DNA of 32,627 bases, from the sequence record SRR20825006_2217; one strand, written 5' to 3'. The position numbers and the translations under genes are program-made. Within the stretch, counting starts at the first letter, position 1. Each line of letters begins with the position of its first letter. The notes beneath the pieces were generated by a model. It ran no database searches and was not told the DNA's origin. It was given only the letters and a program-made list of their open reading frames with translations. Below, in pieces: positions 1,782 to 7,497 of this stretch.

Positions 1782-1954
1782 GCCGCTGAGATCTGCGCTT
1801 TGCTTGGCGATTCGTTTTTTGCTAACCAGTGGAGATCCCTGCGGCGAGGAAGGGACTGATTCGAATCAGCCCCTTCCTCGCCGCAGGGATCTCCACTGGC
1901 GTTTCTTGCGCCAGGAACACCAACAGATTCCTTTACAACGCACGGATTTATACG

Positions 1955-4171
1955 ATGCAGAACATGACACCTCGCGCTTCACGCGCCGCTGTGATGATCC
2001 TCGTGGCAATGCTCGCGACGGCTTGTGGCAACAACAACGAAGAAAACAATACCCCGGCGCCCGAAGAAGATATGGGCATGACGACGCCCGCAGAAGATAT
2101 GGGCGAGACGCCGGATGATGGCGGTGATACGGACATGGGCGAGACCACGCCTGATATGTCCGAAGACCCCGATATGGGCGAGACGACGCCCGATATGAAC
2201 GTGGACCCTGACATGGGCGAGGAAGGCCCGGATGTCCCCGAGGTGGAGCCAAACGACGAGCTCGACTTCGAGGAAGGGATCGACGAATCGACCGGGTTCG
2301 AATCTGGCCAATCGATCGGCGGTAACATCACCGCGTCGGCCGCTGGCGAGCCCGGCGATCTCGACATCTACAGCGTCCAACTCGAGGGCGGGACGATCTT
2401 CGAATGGTCGTTCGCGCAGGTCGGCGAAGGGATCACCGAAGATGGCCTGGCCACGGTGCTCATCGACGCGACGACGGGTGACATCACGCGCGCGCTCTAC
2501 TCCACAGATGGGGACAAGCGTCAGGCGTTCATCCCCGAGGATGACACTTACTACCTGCTCGTCTACGACGCCGCGGACGAAGCCGAGACGCAGGCAGACA
2601 TCCCCGCGCACGGTGGCCCGAGCGCGACCTACATCATCGAAAACTCGACCATCGACATCAGCTCCGAGGCGCTCACCGCACCAGGAAGCGCCGATGGCGA
2701 CCTGAACGATGGCGACGTGGACGTCTACGCCTTCCAATGGGCGAGCGACCAGGTGATCTCGGCCGAGATCTTTGGCGAGCGCGAGCCAAACCTGAGCGAC
2801 ATCGACTCGGTGCTCTACCTCTGGGACGCGGACGCGAGCGAGCTCGTCTCGTTCAACGATGACGCGAACAACGACACGCTCGATTCGCGCATCTCCGCTG
2901 CAGGCGTCGACGGCACGAACTACCTGTTGATCGTCGACAACTACACCTACGCGCCCTCCTCGGCTTACCAGATCGTGGTGAGCGCGGAGGATGACTCGGT
3001 CGACGCTCCTGGCGAGCTGACGACGATGGCGGATGTGACCGGAGACATCGGCGAAGCGGACGCGGCAGCCGAGCAGTACGACACCGATTACTGGGCGATC
3101 ACCGTCCAGCCTGGCGAGACGGTCAAGTTCACGACGACCGCCGACGCTGACCTCCAGCCCGCGACGCTCGTCTACCTCAACGATCAGGGTTCCTTCACCG
3201 AGCTCGCCTTCGCTCGTCCCGTCGACGGCGCATCGGCCGCGACGATCGCGGTGCCTTCGACGCTCGACTCGGCCGTGGAGCTCTACGTGCTCGTGACCGA
3301 CGTGCGCAACCTGCTCGAAGATGACATGGACACGCCTGACTACGTCGGCGGCGCTGGCTTTGGCTACTCGCTCGGCGCAGAGCTCACCACCTTCACGACG
3401 AACAACATCACCGCGCCGGCGACCTTGACTGGCACGCTCGACGAGATCGGTGATTTCGTCTGGTTCGACTTCATGACGCCCGCGAGCGCGGTGTTGTTGG
3501 TGGATGCGAGCAGCACGTTCGCCGCTGGCGATGCCAACTCGGACCTGATCCTCGCGCAGCTCGACGGCGACAACGGCGTCAGCTTCTCGACCAGCCCGAT
3601 GACCTACGTCAACACGACCGCAGGCACCAAGACCTTCGGCGTGGTGGACTCCGCCTTCCAGGCGAGCTCGATGACGACGCCTTACGACTACAACTTCAAC
3701 CTGCGTATCGTGGACACGACCAACGTGACCTACACCGAGCTCGCAGACCCGATGACCAACACCAGCGAGGCAAACGCCACGACGCTCACGCCTCCTGTCG
3801 AGGTCTCCGAGCAAACGCAGGCGCTCGACTCGATGAACCCGAGCTACGACTACTACAAGGTCGCGCTCACCGCAGGTCAGACCATCGTCGTGGTGACCGC
3901 AGAAGATCCCGATGCACCTGTCGCCGATCCAAACGATCCGAACAGCACGCCCGAGTTCGCGGACACGATCGTGCGAATCCTGGACGCAGGCGGCAACGAG
4001 CTCGCGGCGAACGACGACTTGCGCGGCGACGACCAGTCGACCTTCAGCGCGACGAGCTACACGGCGCAAGCCGATGGCACCGTCACCATCGTCGTCGAGC
4101 CTTACTACAGTGAGTTCCTCGGCGACTTCTCCAACGGGTACTACCTGCTCCGCGTGTTGGTCGAGCAGTGA
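1955..4171 (+). CDS. Large acidic surface lipoprotein with tandem PPC-like (pre-peptidase C-terminal) domains
   Basis: Lipobox LATAC, acidic DMG linker, EVEPND motif, and repeated D-x-D-x-Y/F...D(S/T)xLx(L/I)xD...NDD motifs typical of PPC domains. No catalytic motif seen. The start is uncertain (1955 or 1964; the ORF is open from 1829). Confidence 0.75.
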   Translation: MQNMTPRASRAAVMILVAMLATACGNNNEENNTPAPEEDMGMTTPAEDMGETPDDGGDTDMGETTPDMSEDPDMGETTPDMNVDPDMGEEGPDVPEVEPNDELDFEEGIDESTGFESGQSIGGNITASAAGEPGDLDIYSVQLEGGTIFEWSFAQVGEGITEDGLATVLIDATTGDITRALYSTDGDKRQAFIPEDDTYYLLVYDAADEAETQADIPAHGGPSATYIIENSTIDISSEALTAPGSADGDLNDGDVDVYAFQWASDQVISAEIFGEREPNLSDIDSVLYLWDADASELVSFNDDANNDTLDSRISAAGVDGTNYLLIVDNYTYAPSSAYQIVVSAEDDSVDAPGELTTMADVTGDIGEADAAAEQYDTDYWAITVQPGETVKFTTTADADLQPATLVYLNDQGSFTELAFARPVDGASAATIAVPSTLDSAVELYVLVTDVRNLLEDDMDTPDYVGGAGFGYSLGAELTTFTTNNITAPATLTGTLDEIGDFVWFDFMTPASAVLLVDASSTFAAGDANSDLILAQLDGDNGVSFSTSPMTYVNTTAGTKTFGVVDSAFQASSMTTPYDYNFNLRIVDTTNVTYTELADPMTNTSEANATTLTPPVEVSEQTQALDSMNPSYDYYKVALTAGQTIVVVTAEDPDAPVADPNDPNSTPEFADTIVRILDAGGNELAANDDLRGDDQSTFSATSYTAQADGTVTIVVEPYYSEFLGDFSNGYYLLRVLVEQ
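2069..2221 (+). repeat. Intragenic Asp-Met(-Gly) repeats including a 39-bp tandem unit
   Basis: GACATGGGCGAGACCACGCCTGATATGTCCGAAGACCCC / GATATGGGCGAGACGACGCCCGATATGAACGTGGACCCT / GACATGGGCGAG from 2132, encoding DMGETTPDMxxDP. Seven DM dipeptides in total. Confidence 0.8.
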
Positions 4172-4530
4172 CCCGACAGCTCCTCGCGCTCGCGCTCACG
4201 CTGATCATCGAGCTCCCCTGCGCCTATCCCTTTGGCGCCAAGATCAGCCGCGAGCGAGAGGAGCCACGCTGGCGTTGGCCAGTGATTATCCTATCAGCCT
4301 CATTGCTCACTCACCCCTTCGCGTGGTGGGCAAATGAGGTTGGCCTTATCGCGCTGCCCTTCTGGCAGCGCGCCGCGATCATCGAAGTAAGCGTGGTGAT
4401 TCTGGAGGCGATACTCTATCGCTTCGCGCTCCCCTTGCAGGCAAAACGCGCCATCGGCGCATCGCTCCTGGCCAATAGCGCGAGCTTTGGCTTCGGGCTC
4501 TTGCTCTACGCGCTCGGGGTAGCGATTTAG
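4168..4530 (+). CDS. Small integral membrane protein (~4 TM), unknown function
   Basis: GTGA start/stop overlap with the upstream lipoprotein gene. Hydrophobic helices carry the motifs LTLIIE, LLTHP, IEVSVVILE and LANSASF. Confidence 0.8.
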   Translation: MTRQLLALALTLIIELPCAYPFGAKISREREEPRWRWPVIILSASLLTHPFAWWANEVGLIALPFWQRAAIIEVSVVILEAILYRFALPLQAKRAIGASLLANSASFGFGLLLYALGVAI

Positions 4531-4540
4531 TTTCAGGTGC

Positions 4541-5602
4541 TCAACGAGATTCGGAAGAGCTCGAAACGAGCGCGCTGAGCGCGATCATCAGGATCGGGAC
4601 CTCGATCCAGGCATGCACGGCTGCGGCCACGCCATACACCGATCTCGCGATCTTGAAGTCGAAGCAAAACCCGACAAACAACACCGCGCTCGCGCCCACG
4701 ACGGCGAACAAGAAGAGCGCATCGCGCGAGCCGAGGCTCTCGGCTTCTGAGCCGGGAGCTTTCTCGTCCTCCGAAGCCATCGACGCCGCCCCGGGTTCGC
4801 TCGCTCGCGCCAGGCAACGCGGCAAGACGTGAATCACCGCCGCGTAGTGCATGACCTGCGCGAAGACCACCGCAGAGAATGCGTGCTGCGCGCTCGCCAG
4901 GCCGTGCCACTGCCGAGGCAGATAGGCCGAGAAGTGGTCGTAGAGCGGCCCTGTGGGCAGCGGCGTGAAGTCTGGCGCGTACACCCCGAGCTTCATCAAC
5001 CACACGGCAGGTACGCCGCTCGCGATAAACAGCGGGATCATCACGAACACGGCCACCGAGAGCGCCATGACCGCGCCGCGCGATCGAGATGGCGCGACCT
5101 CGACCAAAAACCCCATCGGGGTCAGGTTGTGAAGCACCGCGAGCAAGAGGAGCGTATGAATAGGGGTGACGAGCAAGCCGACCACGAGCCCCACCACGAG
5201 AAGCGCGCTCGCGGCAAAACCCGCGCGGCTCACGCGCCAGATGACGGGGAGCGCGCAGAGCGCGAGCGCGACGACCAGCGCGAGCTCGAGGTTCGTCGCC
5301 AGCGCGCCTTCGATCATGCCCGAGAGCTTGCCGATCCTCAGCCCGACCACACCTGTCAGCAGCAGCGTCAACGCCGCGAGCAACCAGCGCTGCAGGCGCT
5401 GACCGAAGCGAGCGCGCACGAAGCGCATCTCGCTCATCACATGCGCGAGCCCGAACAGCGCCAGCGATAGCGTGTACGTGAGCAACGGGAAGCCCACGCT
5501 GGCGATCATGGCAGCGAGCAGCGCCGAGGCGAAGACGCCAGCGCGCCAACCTCGCGTCAAGGAGAGCGGAAAGGGAGACTGTGTCGTGGAGATCGAGCTC
5601 AC
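4541..5602 (-). CDS. Polytopic membrane protein with His motifs (putative metal-dependent membrane enzyme)
   Basis: GTG at 5602 overlaps the upstream TGA (GTGA), which is more plausible than the 5719 start. About 9-10 hydrophobic segments, with motifs FGLAHVMSE, LHNLTP, FAQVMHY and VHAWIE. Confidence 0.75.
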   Translation of the reverse strand: MSSISTTQSPFPLSLTRGWRAGVFASALLAAMIASVGFPLLTYTLSLALFGLAHVMSEMRFVRARFGQRLQRWLLAALTLLLTGVVGLRIGKLSGMIEGALATNLELALVVALALCALPVIWRVSRAGFAASALLVVGLVVGLLVTPIHTLLLLAVLHNLTPMGFLVEVAPSRSRGAVMALSVAVFVMIPLFIASGVPAVWLMKLGVYAPDFTPLPTGPLYDHFSAYLPRQWHGLASAQHAFSAVVFAQVMHYAAVIHVLPRCLARASEPGAASMASEDEKAPGSEAESLGSRDALFLFAVVGASAVLFVGFCFDFKIARSVYGVAAAVHAWIEVPILMIALSALVSSSSESR

Positions 5603-5928
5603 GAGGCTGTCTGAGTGCTCATCGGGGAAGGTTCGCAGGCAGGCTTCTCGCGCCTGGCAAACCCGAGCAAGGAGAGCCCGGTCGCGAGCGCGATAAACCC
5701 GATGAGGTTCCCGGCGCAACCTCTGGAGGCATCCTCTTTTGGCTGCTCGCTGATGACCTCCTCGGAGGCATCCGGCGACACCGGCTCGTCAGCCTCATTT
5801 AAAGGAGGAGTTTGCCAGTTTTCGAACGAGCCAGGGTCGATCACATCAGCATGCGCCATGATCGGGGCGATGCACGCGAAACAAGCCGCGAACAAGGCCA
5901 TCGAAATCCGTGCGCGAAGAGATGACAT
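5599..5928 (-). CDS. Small secreted protein with C-terminal Cys/TM/basic anchor (MYXO-CTERM-like)
   Basis: GAGGA RBS, signal peptide ending AHA/DVIDPG, acidic linker, then RGCA + TM helix + RR. Confidence 0.75.
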   Translation of the reverse strand: MSSLRARISMALFAACFACIAPIMAHADVIDPGSFENWQTPPLNEADEPVSPDASEEVISEQPKEDASRGCAGNLIGFIALATGLSLLGFARREKPACEPSPMSTQTAS

Positions 5929-5931
5929 GAA

Positions 5932-6396
5932 TCAATCCTCGCGGCGACGTCGCGTGAGCCCGAGGAGCAAGAACCCGAGGAGGAACGCGCCGAAGGGGAT
6001 GCTGGCGCTCGAAGCCTGCGCGCAGCCACGCTGCTTCGGGGCATCCTCGGAGCCGGTCTCCGTATCAGTCGAGGTCTCGCCGCCTGTCTCGGAGCCGGAC
6101 GTGTCCGCGGGCTCCTCGGCGGTGGTCGTGTTGTTGGCGGGCTCTTCGGCCTGTGGCTCGGCGTTCGGATCGCAGGTCAGGATCGTGCTGCAATCCTCGC
6201 TCCCGTCTGGCGTGGGGCGACAACGCTTGCCCTCGACGCAGGCGCCGTCTTCGCCGTTGATACTACAGGCGTCACCGAGCTCTTTATTCGAGCAGGACTC
6301 CTGCCCTGGCGAGATGAGGTCGGCGAATGCAGCAGATGGCAACGTGATGAGGGCGCCAAATACGAGCAGGAATACACAGAGCAAACGTTGGGGCAT
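5932..6396 (-). CDS. MYXO-CTERM-type surface protein with 6-Cys domain
   Basis: AGGA RBS before ATG 6396, signal peptide ending AFA/DLISPG, a C..K..GD.C......G.C motif, an acidic T/E/G stalk, and the tail RGCAQASSASIPFGAFLLGFLLLGLTRRRRED. Confidence 0.85.
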   Translation of the reverse strand: MPQRLLCVFLLVFGALITLPSAAFADLISPGQESCSNKELGDACSINGEDGACVEGKRCRPTPDGSEDCSTILTCDPNAEPQAEEPANNTTTAEEPADTSGSETGGETSTDTETGSEDAPKQRGCAQASSASIPFGAFLLGFLLLGLTRRRRED

Positions 6397-6660
6397 GACG
6401 ATCATCCTGGATGAATTTGCCGCTGGAGAGTGTTCCTCCAGGAGGCAGTGAAGAAATGGATGGCTCGAACCTGTAGTCGCGATCGTCTACAGAGGTAACA
6501 CGCCTCTCCCGATCACACCAGACGAGAGCAACTTCGATGCTTGTACGATCGATGACAGCATATCGCGTCGCGCTCTGCTTGACCCGTCACGAGCAAAGTG
6601 TTCAGATCGGAATACTCGAACCAAAACAAGACGCTGCAGAGCGCAGCGAGGAGAGGCAAA

Positions 6661-7497
6661 ATGGCGACATGGTACGACGACACCGCAGGCAAACCCAGCC
6701 AGAACCCCCTGGGAGGGCAGCTCTCCGCGGAGCAGGTGCAGCTCAAGCGGGTCAACCCCTTTGGCGTGGACATCATGGGGATCTTCAATCAGGCCTTCGA
6801 GAAGGTCAAAGCCCAGCCAGCCGAGGCGATCGGTTACCCGCTGGTGATCATGGCCATTCAGATGGCGGTTCACATGGCGATCAACATCATCATGCAATTC
6901 GCGATGTTCTTTGTCGCCTTTGCTGGCGCGGCGGCGAGCAAGGCGCATGAGATGTTGGGCATGGCCGTCATGATCGGCGCGGGCGTGATCATCTTCGCCG
7001 TCGTGTTCGTCTTGATGATGGCGATGCAGGCGCTCGTGCAGGGCGCGCTCAACATCGCGTGGCTGCGCCTCGCGCGTGGTCAGTCGCTCAAGCTCGAGCA
7101 CCTCTTCGAGGTCAAGCGCTTCGCCAAGCCTCTTATTGTCGGCTCCATCTTGCTCCCTCTGGGCGTGACGCTCGGGTACATCTTCCTGATCATCCCCGGA
7201 ATCATCTTCATGCTCGGCTGCTTCCTCTACTCCTTCGTGGTGGTGGACAAGAACCTCTCTGGCGTCGAGAGCCTCAAGGCCGCCTGGGCGCTCACCGATG
7301 GCCACAAGCTCGACCTGTTCCTGCTGATGCTCCTGATGAGCCTCGTGAACATGCTCGGCATGATGGCATGTGGTGTGGGCATGATCGTCACGATCCCCAT
7401 GACCTTTGGCGCGATCGCCTACTTCTACGACTCCATCGCCGAGCCAGGGAACGCCTATCTCCAGGATGGCGAGGGCCTCGACGACGTCTTTGCCTGA
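6661..7497 (+). CDS. Integral membrane protein (DUF975/YciC-like)
   Basis: GGAGAGG RBS before ATG 6661. Multiple TMs with the motifs LIIPGI, VVVDKNLSGVESLKAAWALTDG and ACGVGMIVTIP. Confidence 0.75.
   Translation: MATWYDDTAGKPSQNPLGGQLSAEQVQLKRVNPFGVDIMGIFNQAFEKVKAQPAEAIGYPLVIMAIQMAVHMAINIIMQFAMFFVAFAGAAASKAHEMLGMAVMIGAGVIIFAVVFVLMMAMQALVQGALNIAWLRLARGQSLKLEHLFEVKRFAKPLIVGSILLPLGVTLGYIFLIIPGIIFMLGCFLYSFVVVDKNLSGVESLKAAWALTDGHKLDLFLLMLLMSLVNMLGMMACGVGMIVTIPMTFGAIAYFYDSIAEPGNAYLQDGEGLDDVFA

Follow-up and report, generated by a model that had tools for sequence, protein, structure and literature searches.

To our knowledge, few systems that sort or mature proteins of the bacterial envelope are known: the lipoprotein pathway, prepilin peptidase, the sortases, the exosortases, rhombosortase and myxosortase. 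Each of these opened a field when it was found. The lipoprotein pathway is made up of Lgt, LspA and Lnt, all polytopic inner-membrane proteins, of which LspA is small, with four helices, and Lnt is optional. Its clients are defined by a short motif that ends the Sec signal peptide, and the pathway acts on the newly exposed N-terminal residue. An account of the lipobox and of the Lgt steps forms part of PMC12419801. In the dedicated sorting pairs, which include MrtX with MYXO-CTERM, MrtJ with JDVT-CTERM and exosortase with PEP-CTERM, an intramembrane enzyme is encoded beside its single target, and the target carries a signal in three parts, a motif, then a membrane helix, then a basic cluster. 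The available text of PMC11980579 describes myxosortases as CPBP enzymes with the motifs EExxxR, FxxxH and HxxxN. A further pairing, that of the Skillet-1 Lipocone with "GS-lipobox" proteins, is a prediction by Burroughs, Nicastro and Aravind (eLife 2025, PMC12419801). The Lipocone core, as outlined in that article, has four helices: helix 2 bears a His, helix 3 a Glu and, close to its end, an acidic residue, and helix 4 an Asp.

The locus discussed here lies in a window of 32,627 nucleotides, the whole stretch of DNA that was analysed. Partner A (157 aa, 5932-6405), partner B (109 aa, 5599-5928) and protein C (353 aa, GTG start, 4541-5602) follow one another on the minus strand, and D, a four-helix membrane protein of 120 aa with a GTG start, is encoded on the plus strand at 4168-4530. 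The A/B junction reads TGA-ttc-ATG, a 3-bp gap, and the B/C junction reads tcGTGAgc, with the start of C overlapping the stop of B, so the tight linkage reported in a first-pass annotation of this DNA can be read directly in the sequence. The start of C at 5602 matches the N-termini of two homologues (80% and 76% identity). D and C are convergent, with 10 nt between their stops, and the start of D overlaps the stop of the gene upstream of it (1829-4171). A promoter and terminator scan of 4000-6700 gave no signal exceeding shuffled controls. That annotation had also presented A, B and C as a three-gene operon; the order holds, but the convergent gene at 4168-4530 is also part of the system, which is therefore larger than the operon.

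Both partners carry a signal peptide, residues 1-28 in A and 1-27 in B, with A-x-A at positions -3 and -1. Cleavage as placed by the -3/-1 rule would fall between PSAAFA and DLISPG in A and between IMAHA and DVIDPG in B, giving mature N-termini whose codons occupy 6304..6321 (D29-L-I-S-P-G34) and 5830..5847 (D28-V-I-D-P-G33), both on the minus strand. After the motif, A continues with a small Cys-rich domain, an acidic/Thr-rich linker, RGC, a membrane helix and an RRRRED tail, and B with a 37-residue acidic/Pro-rich linker that holds no domain, RGC, a membrane helix and an RREK tail. The C-terminus of each consists of RGCA followed by a hydrophobic segment and then basic residues. A single BLASTP comparison of A with B aligns the two ends alone (E 3e-4 and 0.048), in keeping with the earlier description of proteins alike at both ends and different between them. 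The same description was right that B has no domain but placed about 43 residues between its motif and its Cys; there are 37 between G33 and C71, and 43 is the count from D28.

The tails were first read as MYXO-CTERM sorting signals. The pattern of a Cys, a membrane helix and an Arg-rich end is present in A (RGC...FGAFLLGFLLLGL-TRRRRED; the anchor, from R126-G-C128 through the membrane helix to RRRRED, lies at 5935..6030 on the minus strand) and in B (RGC...IGFIALATGLSLLGF-ARREK). An HMM scan listed TIGR03901 for neither protein at E<=1. A does match tails of MYXO-CTERM-anchored families weakly (E 1.7e-4 to 0.01), and partners at related loci exceed the TIGR03901 cut-off of 20 (L071 with 23.2 bits, L006 with 22 bits). 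A aligns with Myxococcota partners that adjoin C homologues, and the Cys column is kept in at least 90% of the 16 Myxococcota partners in the alignment.

C belongs to an unannotated family of 401 representative clusters. The four His motifs picked out at the start, GLAH (51-54), HNLTP (158-162), QVMHY (249-253) and HAWIE (330-334), are all present, and across 92 family sequences every one of these His residues is invariant, the full invariant set being H54, E58, E106, H158, N159, Q249, H252, Y253, R320, Y323, H330 and E334. C is predicted to be an inner-membrane protein; by the positive-inside count its N-terminus is inside, ten helices cross the membrane and the loop of 42 aa that connects helices 7 and 8 lies outside, where it would face the periplasm. 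The structural model (pLDDT 91.0, pTM 0.90), taken with this topology, places the invariant His residues about mid-membrane. C has no match in Pfam, NCBIfam or the PDB, where a sequence profile gave 0 hits. A Foldseek search of the model against the PDB found no structure at E<=0.001 (best E 0.65), a wide VIA-align search reached at best Z 8.9 over 80 residues, which corresponds to generic helix pairs, and the nearest ESM Atlas clusters have no Pfam family. The confidently modelled fold of C has no solved relative in these searches. A search for longer C fusions (665-2000 aa) found none, which is weak evidence.

The invariant residues of D are E15, H49 (within T-H-P), E73, E80 and N103, helix 2 carrying H49, helix 3 both E73 and E80, and helix 4 N103. 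D, too, is unmatched in Pfam, NCBIfam and the PDB (E 0.13 for the best PDB sequence), and its nearest ESM Atlas cluster has no Pfam family. At 24 loci D was flagged as lying in the same ORF as C, which would have made a C-D fusion; there the frame of D simply happens to stay open through C, where its translation is Arg-rich nonsense, so these loci give no evidence of fusion. CPBP identity was rejected for both proteins. C has no PF02517 match and lacks EExxxR, FxxxH and HxxxN; the first-pass annotation had already set it apart from the known myxosortases by the lack of EExxxR. D lacks these three motifs too and has no match, with an hhalign probability of 0.2% against 16 CPBP domains.

Among described proteins, the Lipocone has a pattern close to that of D. 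Skillet-1, as far as the article's available text presents it, is likewise a small four-helix membrane protein with His and Glu in helices 2 and 3, in an operon with a secreted protein, an odd motif at the end of the signal peptide and variable ectodomains. D differs from the Lipocone core outlined there in having Asn103 in place of the helix-4 Asp and an extra Glu in helix 1. None of 44 D sequences matches VanZ or DUF2809, an hhalign comparison of D with four VanZ-like sequences, a low-power test, gave 0.07%, and the text of PMC12419801 contains no word beginning "Myxococc" or "Planctomyc". The likeness of D to VanZ/Lipocone is one of pattern that has no sequence support, and it is a lead, not membership.

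The linkage of C to proteins like A and B was assessed at the 73 loci with at least 500 nt upstream of C. A strict test, namely a hydrophobic stretch followed by D[ILVMF][ILVMPAF] together with a C-terminal hydrophobic stretch followed by basic residues, was positive just upstream of C in 39/73 loci and in 33/3675 of the other stop-to-stop frames of the same loci. With six more partners upstream under relaxed rules, three downstream and two on the opposite strand, a partner-like gene stands beside C in 50/73 loci from several phyla: 13/25 labelled Myxococcota, 20/25 Planctomycetota, 9/10 cyanobacteria and 8/13 others. C has no adjoining partner in 23/73 loci, and neither partner nor D in 13/73; those lacking a partner include a Myxococcota group of five loci with a different conserved neighbourhood. 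All-vs-all ORF clustering of 81 loci found no further conserved neighbours, only C, three partner groups and antisense shadow frames. Carriers of the module are Myxococcota, Planctomycetota, heterocystous cyanobacteria and a few Proteobacteria, with named strains of Calothrix, Tolypothrix and Aliinostoc among the cyanobacteria. Scoring the neighbours of C homologues and the conservation of the His residues had been set beforehand as the test of the first proposal, a dedicated system that joins a polytopic protein to anchored Asp-led proteins. With partners at 50 of the 73 loci, the His residues invariant and the cross-phylum linkage far above the control rate, that proposal has come through.

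Across these loci the partners have in common a motif, usually A-x-A followed by D-[VIL]-[IVLP]-x-P-G, and a C-terminal anchor. In a profile of 40 partners, Ala stands at -3 in 31 and at -1 in 32, with Pro at -1 in 7; at +5 and +6, positions outside the rule by which partners were selected, 24 have Pro and 19 have Gly (9 have Asp), respectively. The partners show a short or basic n-region, a hydrophobic core and, by the -3/-1 rule, a signal peptidase I site, as in a Sec signal peptide; because this is an ordinary A-x-A site in most of them, no special peptidase is required. The middles vary by phylum and common features are confined to the ends. Myxococcota partners have a Cys-rich middle domain, and Planctomycetota partners a LysM insert that lies above the Pfam cut-off in 3/10 scanned and just below it in one more. 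B and the partners at L005, L027, L045, L100 and L102 are minimal and have no middle domain. Against solved structures the LysM insert alone matches (Z 7.1 over 49 residues); the rest of the partner stays at Z<=3.6, save one row of Z 4.5 at rmsd 9.0. There are one to three partners per module.

For D, a position from -200 to +1500 nt relative to the C end was taken as adjacent to C, and 57/80 loci qualify, with D on the same strand in 30 and convergent in 27. Both C and D are single-copy in 5/5 genomes, with D adjoining C in 4/5, and the partner is single-copy in 3/3 cyanobacteria. All C-positive sampled genomes contain D, 9/9 in Myxococcota and 12/12 in Planctomycetota (21/21). Overall D occurs in 44/201 sampled Myxococcota and 21/201 sampled Planctomycetota genomes, and without detectable C in 35/201 and 9/201, where detection of C scored 10 candidates per genome. 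Among ten D loci from genomes without a C match, a partner-like gene adjoins D or a divergent C in seven; at six of these there is no C-like gene within ~4 kb, and a divergent C is present in 2/10. D and partners thus occur without detectable C, so C is not needed wherever such partners exist. D is tied to the proteins with an Asp N-terminus at least as tightly as C is. Gene order, linkage across phyla, the invariant residues and the one-to-one relation of single-copy genes are all observed directly.

How the partner might meet C was modelled with ESMFold2 without custom alignments, using C, residues 29-90 of A and a Zn riding along. The complex scored 0.76 and the best of 3 controls 0.00; the same mark is reached by 51/78 solved complexes, 2/108 mismatched pairs and 7/44 blind neighbouring gene pairs, a calibration made without Zn and without peptides or disordered chains. 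Agreement between the three runs covers at least 83% of contacts, with a partner pLDDT of at least 79 and an interface of 93-104 contacts. On the side of A the modelled contacts include residues 29-32 and 34-35, and on that of C they fall at 43, 47 and 51, at 148-159 (with H158 and N159), at 196-240, at Q249 and at 317-331; all four His-bearing helices would therefore be touched. The mature N-terminus of A is thus predicted to dock into C, and the earlier suggestion that C partners with this peptide gains support from the model. The fold and topology of C, like the docking of the peptide, are predictions.

The gene set recurs in several phyla and therefore looks like an undescribed system for capture or maturation of a protein N-terminus. 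We regard the chance as about even that A, B, C and D form a conserved envelope module of this kind, working by the logic of the lipoprotein pathway. The first part would be one to three type-I membrane proteins, each with a Sec signal peptide, an Asp-led N-terminus and a C-terminal anchor, which in Myxococcota would be a MYXO-CTERM-type tail. The second would be D, the steadiest companion of the partners, with Glu, His, Glu, Glu and Asn embedded in the membrane by its four helices. The third would be C, whose ten membrane helices carry, within them or immediately beside them, four His and three Glu as well as Asn, Gln, Tyr and Arg; it is present in a subset of systems, the window included. 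After Sec export the C-terminal anchor would keep the partner at the inner membrane, and signal peptidase I or D would remove the signal peptide. The new, hydrophobic, Asp-led N-terminus may then enter a periplasm-facing cavity of C and reach the His/Glu centre, where it would undergo a chemical modification or stay bound as a tethered ligand. Catalysis itself, the involvement of a metal, the kind of reaction and the sequence of steps are what we infer. Among the points against a capture pathway, the invariant His residues of C, at about mid-membrane, lie deep for a periplasmic peptide.

The likeness to the lipoprotein pathway is one of analogy and would consist in the motif at the end of the signal peptide, polytopic proteins with buried polar residues, a small four-helix protein (D) and an optional component (C). 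The module differs in that its motif, A-x-A followed by D-[VIL]-[IVLP]-x-P-G, has no Cys, in that its clients keep a C-terminal anchor, and in being one-to-one with a neighbouring gene where the lipoprotein pathway has one enzyme for many clients. Neither C nor D matches models of Lgt, LspA or Lnt. More specifically, though this is doubtful, the module may be a new class of maturation system, a mirror image of the sortase-type systems at the C-terminus, in which an N-terminal signal is read by D, which would cleave or transfer at the junction, and by C, a His4/Glu3 metal enzyme that would modify the Asp covalently, for instance by lipidating or oxidising it. The outcome would then be an envelope protein fixed or marked at each terminus. 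No relative of C or D with a known function emerged from Pfam, NCBIfam, PDB or fold searches, and no account of such a module was found in full-text literature, supplements excluded, so the first-pass annotation's impression of an undescribed system still stands.

The same genes might instead encode a stable complex without catalysis. In that case C, joined by D, would act as transporter, channel or sensor and bind a metal ion or small substrate in its buried His/Glu cluster; the partner would be its accessory periplasmic subunit, and the Asp-led N-terminus would serve as plug, gate or metal-delivering arm. Taken as a whole, we consider this unlikely. A parallel is found in YcnI/CopC with CopD, periplasmic copper proteins that use their first residue, together with a polytopic His-rich permease. 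In the complex model the large interface (93-104 contacts) also takes in the partner's Cys-rich domain, which would sit on the periplasmic loop 7-8 of C, as might be expected of a subunit, and a one-to-one relation of single-copy genes suits subunits as well as it does enzyme and substrate. The weak top Foldseek rows include the metal transporters BbZIP and Nramp, at E 0.65-1.3 and TM-score 0.15-0.19, but C and D match no transporter family. It would also be odd for a ligand-binding subunit that partner ectodomains are unconserved across phyla and absent in B and at L005, L100 and L102. Finally, the MYXO-CTERM tail of Myxococcota partners directs proteins to the cell surface, away from the inner membrane, according to the available text of PMC11980579.

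If the anchor and not the N-terminus were the signal, C or D would be a sorting enzyme for the C-terminal end in a sortase-like one-to-one pair, and the N-terminal motif would be incidental. This we hold to be very improbable. Every partner has a C-terminal hydrophobic stretch and basic cluster, A and B have a MYXO-CTERM-like tail, planctomycete tails have patterns in common within their own group, and dedicated pairs of enzyme and target genes are described in the accessible parts of 10.1101/2023.06.07.544157 and PMC11980579. Across phyla, however, the tails have no signature motif, the Cys being found in Myxococcota alone, whereas the N-terminal motif is conserved in all groups. The conserved signal of the module is thus at the opposite end from that of the sorting pairs and in mirror order, basic, then hydrophobic, then motif. 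The MYXO-CTERM tails of Myxococcota already have a CPBP sortase of their own, as the available text on myxosortases has it, and the complex model passes with a fragment of A that lacks the C-terminal tail.

The first-pass annotation had found C loosely reminiscent of Brp/Blh, and this likeness did not hold up at the sequence level. Both are polytopic membrane proteins with a single invariant His in several helices, and in C the four such His residues in four helices, with three invariant Glu, would suit a non-haem iron site. Yet 0/92 C members match BCD (PF15461) at E<=10, C matches no family at E<=1, and hhalign of the C family against the BCD alignment, a shallow one of 9 sequences from one order, gave a probability of 0.5% and E 0.11. 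The motifs of the 9 BCD proteins (PHGxxD, HFxxGD, HxxRH, PH) differ from those of C (AHVxxE, HN, QxxHY, HAWxE), as do the lengths, no Brp/Blh entry was returned among the PDB structure matches to the C model, and in a scan of 10 C-carrying genomes the sole BCD match was a separate gene, so that one genome carries both families. That C is a Brp/Blh-like His-ligated iron oxygenase acting on a membrane lipid such as a carotenoid, with its adjacency to the partners non-mechanistic, is barely plausible, given these results, the C-partner linkage far above chance and the lack of any opsin, rhodopsin or carotenoid gene among the window's large ORFs as scanned with Pfam.

For the preferred reading, an N-terminal capture or maturation module, what the locus offers is a defined client motif and two unannotated intramembrane families with invariant buried His, Glu and Asn. 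It is directly testable because named cyanobacterial strains have single copies of all three genes. If C and D are not catalytic, the module would still be a new three-part membrane complex. If they are, the membrane would be the site of a new enzyme chemistry that acts on a protein N-terminus, and functions could be proposed for unannotated families, which in the case of C span 401 representative clusters.

Three linked genes on the minus strand of the window encode two small anchored proteins, A (5932-6405, 157 aa) and B (5599-5928, 109 aa), and a membrane protein, C (4541-5602, 353 aa counted from a GTG start with which close homologues agree). The tight linkage described in the first-pass annotation is borne out by the open reading frames and by the DNA: A and B are separated by a 3-bp gap (TGA-ttc-ATG), and the B/C junction reads tcGTGAgc, so the stop of B and the start of C overlap. 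A has a typical signal peptide ending in AFA and followed by DLISPG, B has one ending in AHA and followed by DVIDPG, and the C-terminus of both proteins consists of RGC, then a hydrophobic stretch, then basic residues. BLASTP aligns the two at their N- and C-terminal ends only, as had been proposed. The finding is real and bigger than was first stated, in that the operon stands but a system of A, B, and C is incomplete, having missed a 120-aa small membrane protein, D, encoded on the plus strand at 4168-4530. The GTG start of D overlaps the stop of the gene at 1829-4171 (GTGA), with which it is therefore probably co-translated in the window. That plus-strand gene encodes an acidic 780-aa protein whose N-terminus resembles a lipoprotein signal (...LATAC) and which weakly matches the pre-peptidase C-terminal (PPC) domain (24.3 bits against a cut-off of 25.9); all-against-all clustering found no counterpart in 80 related loci. 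Divergent from the operon, 6598-7497 (plus strand) encodes a 299-aa polytopic membrane protein with weak matches only, to DUF975 (E 0.0086) and DUF7544 (E 0.034). The segment 23000-29000, which encodes an AraC-type regulator, a short-chain dehydrogenase, and an NAD(P)H-binding protein, may have been acquired given this gene content and a G+C of 0.54-0.57, lower than the ~0.62 elsewhere.

C has no match in Pfam or NCBIfam even at E<=1, and 92 aligned members of its family gave scattered noise against Pfam, any one family being matched by at most 2 members. A word-indexed search returned 101 proteins, whose names are absent or "hypothetical" barring two odd source-given ones, and an exhaustive search returned 401 representative clusters at E<=0.001, 152 at E<=1e-30. 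The four His motifs noticed earlier hold up well, as all four His are invariant in the 92 members, together with P39, G51, E58, E106, N159, P162, F242, Q249, Y253, R320, Y323, E334, and P336. The structure model is confident (pLDDT 91.0, pTM 0.90), and its helices, along with hydrophobicity and charge counts, predict ten membrane spans. By their K+R counts, loops 2-3 and 6-7 are assigned to the cytoplasm and loop 7-8, of 42 residues, to the outside, which points to an N-in topology in which the invariant His are predicted to lie about mid-membrane. Neither a PDB sequence-profile search nor Foldseek (E<=0.001) returned any hit, and exhaustive structural comparison against the PDB gave helix-pair matches only (best Z 8.9 over 80 residues). 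A distant C-like subfamily scoring 58-84 bits (L099-L104, from genomes G261, G331, G197, G398, G340, and G221) has FHG[WY][LIV]E in place of VHAWIE; it adjoins D in four of six loci and Asp-motif anchored proteins in at least three (L100, L101, L102).

With one genome scanned per species, 92 of 119 candidate C stretches were confirmed, and the best 80 loci were kept (by record title, 27 Myxococcota-type, 28 Planctomycetota, 10 cyanobacteria, and 15 others). The gene directly upstream of C, in the same orientation, specifies in most loci a partner protein that combines a signal peptide, an Asp with two hydrophobic residues after it, and, at the C-terminus, a hydrophobic stretch and basic tail. 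Under a strict rule this partner is found upstream in 39 of the 73 loci having enough upstream DNA, against 33 positives among 3675 control frames. A relaxed rule adds 6 upstream, 3 downstream, and 2 on the opposite strand, so that the proposed association with C homologues is seen in 50 of 73 loci; among the 23 with no partner next to C is a group of Myxococcota whose conserved neighbourhood is a different one. Across 40 partners, with Asp at +1 fixed by selection, Ala occupies -3 in 31 and -1 in 32 (Pro in 7), +2 is V (19), I (13), L (6), or M (2), and +3 is mainly I (17), V (8), L (6), or P (5). Pro at +5 (24) and Gly or Asp at +6 (19 and 9) support the motif independently, since both positions lie outside the selection rule.

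Partner middles vary by phylum. Those of Myxococcota have a small Cys-rich domain and a MYXO-CTERM tail (partners at L071 and L006 pass TIGR03901), those of Planctomycetota a domain of ~200 residues carrying a LysM insert, and those of cyanobacteria a related domain without LysM, and several domainless partners resemble B (L005, L027, L045, L100, L102). One planctomycete partner was modelled confidently (pLDDT 88), with solved relatives for its LysM part only. Another (L072:3033-3905) carries the motif three times in tandem straight after the signal peptide (APDVIA-APDVIA-APDVIPPG). Two or three tandem paralogues, as with A and B, occur at L023:2650-4023, at L130:3432-5003, and downstream of C at L050 and L080; the L023 copy closest to C has lost its Asp motif. 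A further subtype (L004:923-1294, L006:3516-3950, L101, L138) has a very short, 12-residue signal peptide with zero basic residues, then ADIPPP-x-x-YVE-x-C and another kind of Cys-rich domain.

D was first noticed beside the distant C-like subfamily, as a small membrane protein resembling the window's own. Four such proteins seeded a profile that, after one iteration, locates D between -200 and +1500 nt from the C end in 57 of 80 loci, either directly after C on the same strand (30, mainly Planctomycetota) or convergent with it (27, mainly Myxococcota and cyanobacteria, as in the window). D has four hydrophobic helices, and across 44 sequences it keeps E15, H49 (in T-H-P), E73, E80, and N103 without exception. 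It has no match in Pfam, NCBIfam, or PDB; weak matches to the Rnf-Nqr membrane subunit family in 3 of the 44 proteins of the D alignment, A6 (best E 3.2e-05), are probably compositional. Twenty-four cases flagged as C and D in the same ORF proved on translation to be open junk frames and gave no evidence of fusion. D is single-copy in five of five genomes and adjoins C in four. When 201 genomes of each phylum were sampled evenly, C turned up in 9 from Myxococcota and 12 from Planctomycetota and D in 44 and 21, including all 21 C-positive genomes, so D is wider than C. Among ten D loci from genomes without a C hit, two have a divergent C (34 and 50 bits) and seven have an Asp-motif partner-like gene adjoining D or divergent C, six of these with a C-like gene absent within ~4 kb. 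Because D is the wider family and partners sit beside it without C, partner and D form the evolutionary core and C is an addition; the window holds all three.

How the partner may meet C is suggested by an ESMFold2 model, made without family alignments, of C with residues 29-90 of A (mature N-terminus and Cys-rich domain) and Zn. It scored 0.76 against 0.00 for the best of three controls, with at least 83% contact agreement over three runs and partner pLDDT of at least 79. In the calibration, which unlike the model had no small molecule and covers no peptides or disordered chains, 51 of 78 solved complexes came up to the score mark, compared with 2 of 108 mismatched pairs; among blind pairs of neighbouring genes, 7 of 44 came up to it too. 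The modelled contacts of A include 29-32 and 34-35 of the motif and 49-80. Those of C are predicted to include residues in helix 2 (43, 47, and 51, near H54), helix 6 (148-159, with H158 and N159 among them), the periplasmic loop (196-240), helix 8 (Q249, near H252), and helix 10 (317-331, around H330). The Cys-rich domain would thus rest on the periplasmic loop, and from these residue lists, which are not paired, the Asp-led peptide may reach a pocket between the four helices that bear the His. The model supports partner-C binding, short of a demonstration, and would link the motif to the invariant pocket of C.

The module's linkage is conserved, its buried polar residues are invariant, and its copy number is one-to-one. 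Its best fit, which we hold with about even confidence, is a dedicated pathway for N-terminal capture or maturation. The partner would be exported via Sec and tethered at the inner membrane by its C-terminal anchor, after which the signal peptide would be removed. Signal peptidase I suits 32 of 40 sites, and the seven with Pro at -1 suggest another peptidase, for which D is a candidate. The new Asp-[VIL]-[IVLP] end would then enter the pocket of C to be modified or held. The Glu, His, Glu, Glu, and Asn of the four-helix D would suit an intramembrane hydrolase or transferase, and the four His and three Glu of C a metal centre. If maturation is right, this would echo the logic of the lipoprotein pathway. 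A full-text literature search found no description of the module; the nearest analogy in print, from PMC12419801, pairs by prediction a 4-helix "Skillet-1" Lipocone protein with Ser-type lipobox proteins. D appears to share its pattern of His in helix 2 and Glu in helix 3 but gives no sequence match.

A non-catalytic complex, a transporter or sensor with an accessory subunit, is a rival reading that we consider unlikely. That a sorting enzyme here acts on the C-terminal anchor is improbable. Myxosortases, according to PMC11980579, are CPBP proteases marked by EExxxR and HxxxN, and both motifs are missing from C and D, in agreement with the first-pass annotation as to EExxxR in C. Least probable is a lipid oxygenase of the Blh kind with no relation to the partners, since the Brp/Blh likeness once suggested for C found no support at the sequence level: nine BCD proteins taken from genomes share PHGxxD, HFxxGD, HxxRH, and PH, the comparison of their profile with that of C gives 0.5%, and one Luminiphilus-labelled genome has a BCD protein and a C-family member together. 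The capture or maturation pathway is a function we infer for a module that is conserved across phyla and comprises families without annotation, a client motif that is new, and a fold lacking any solved relative.
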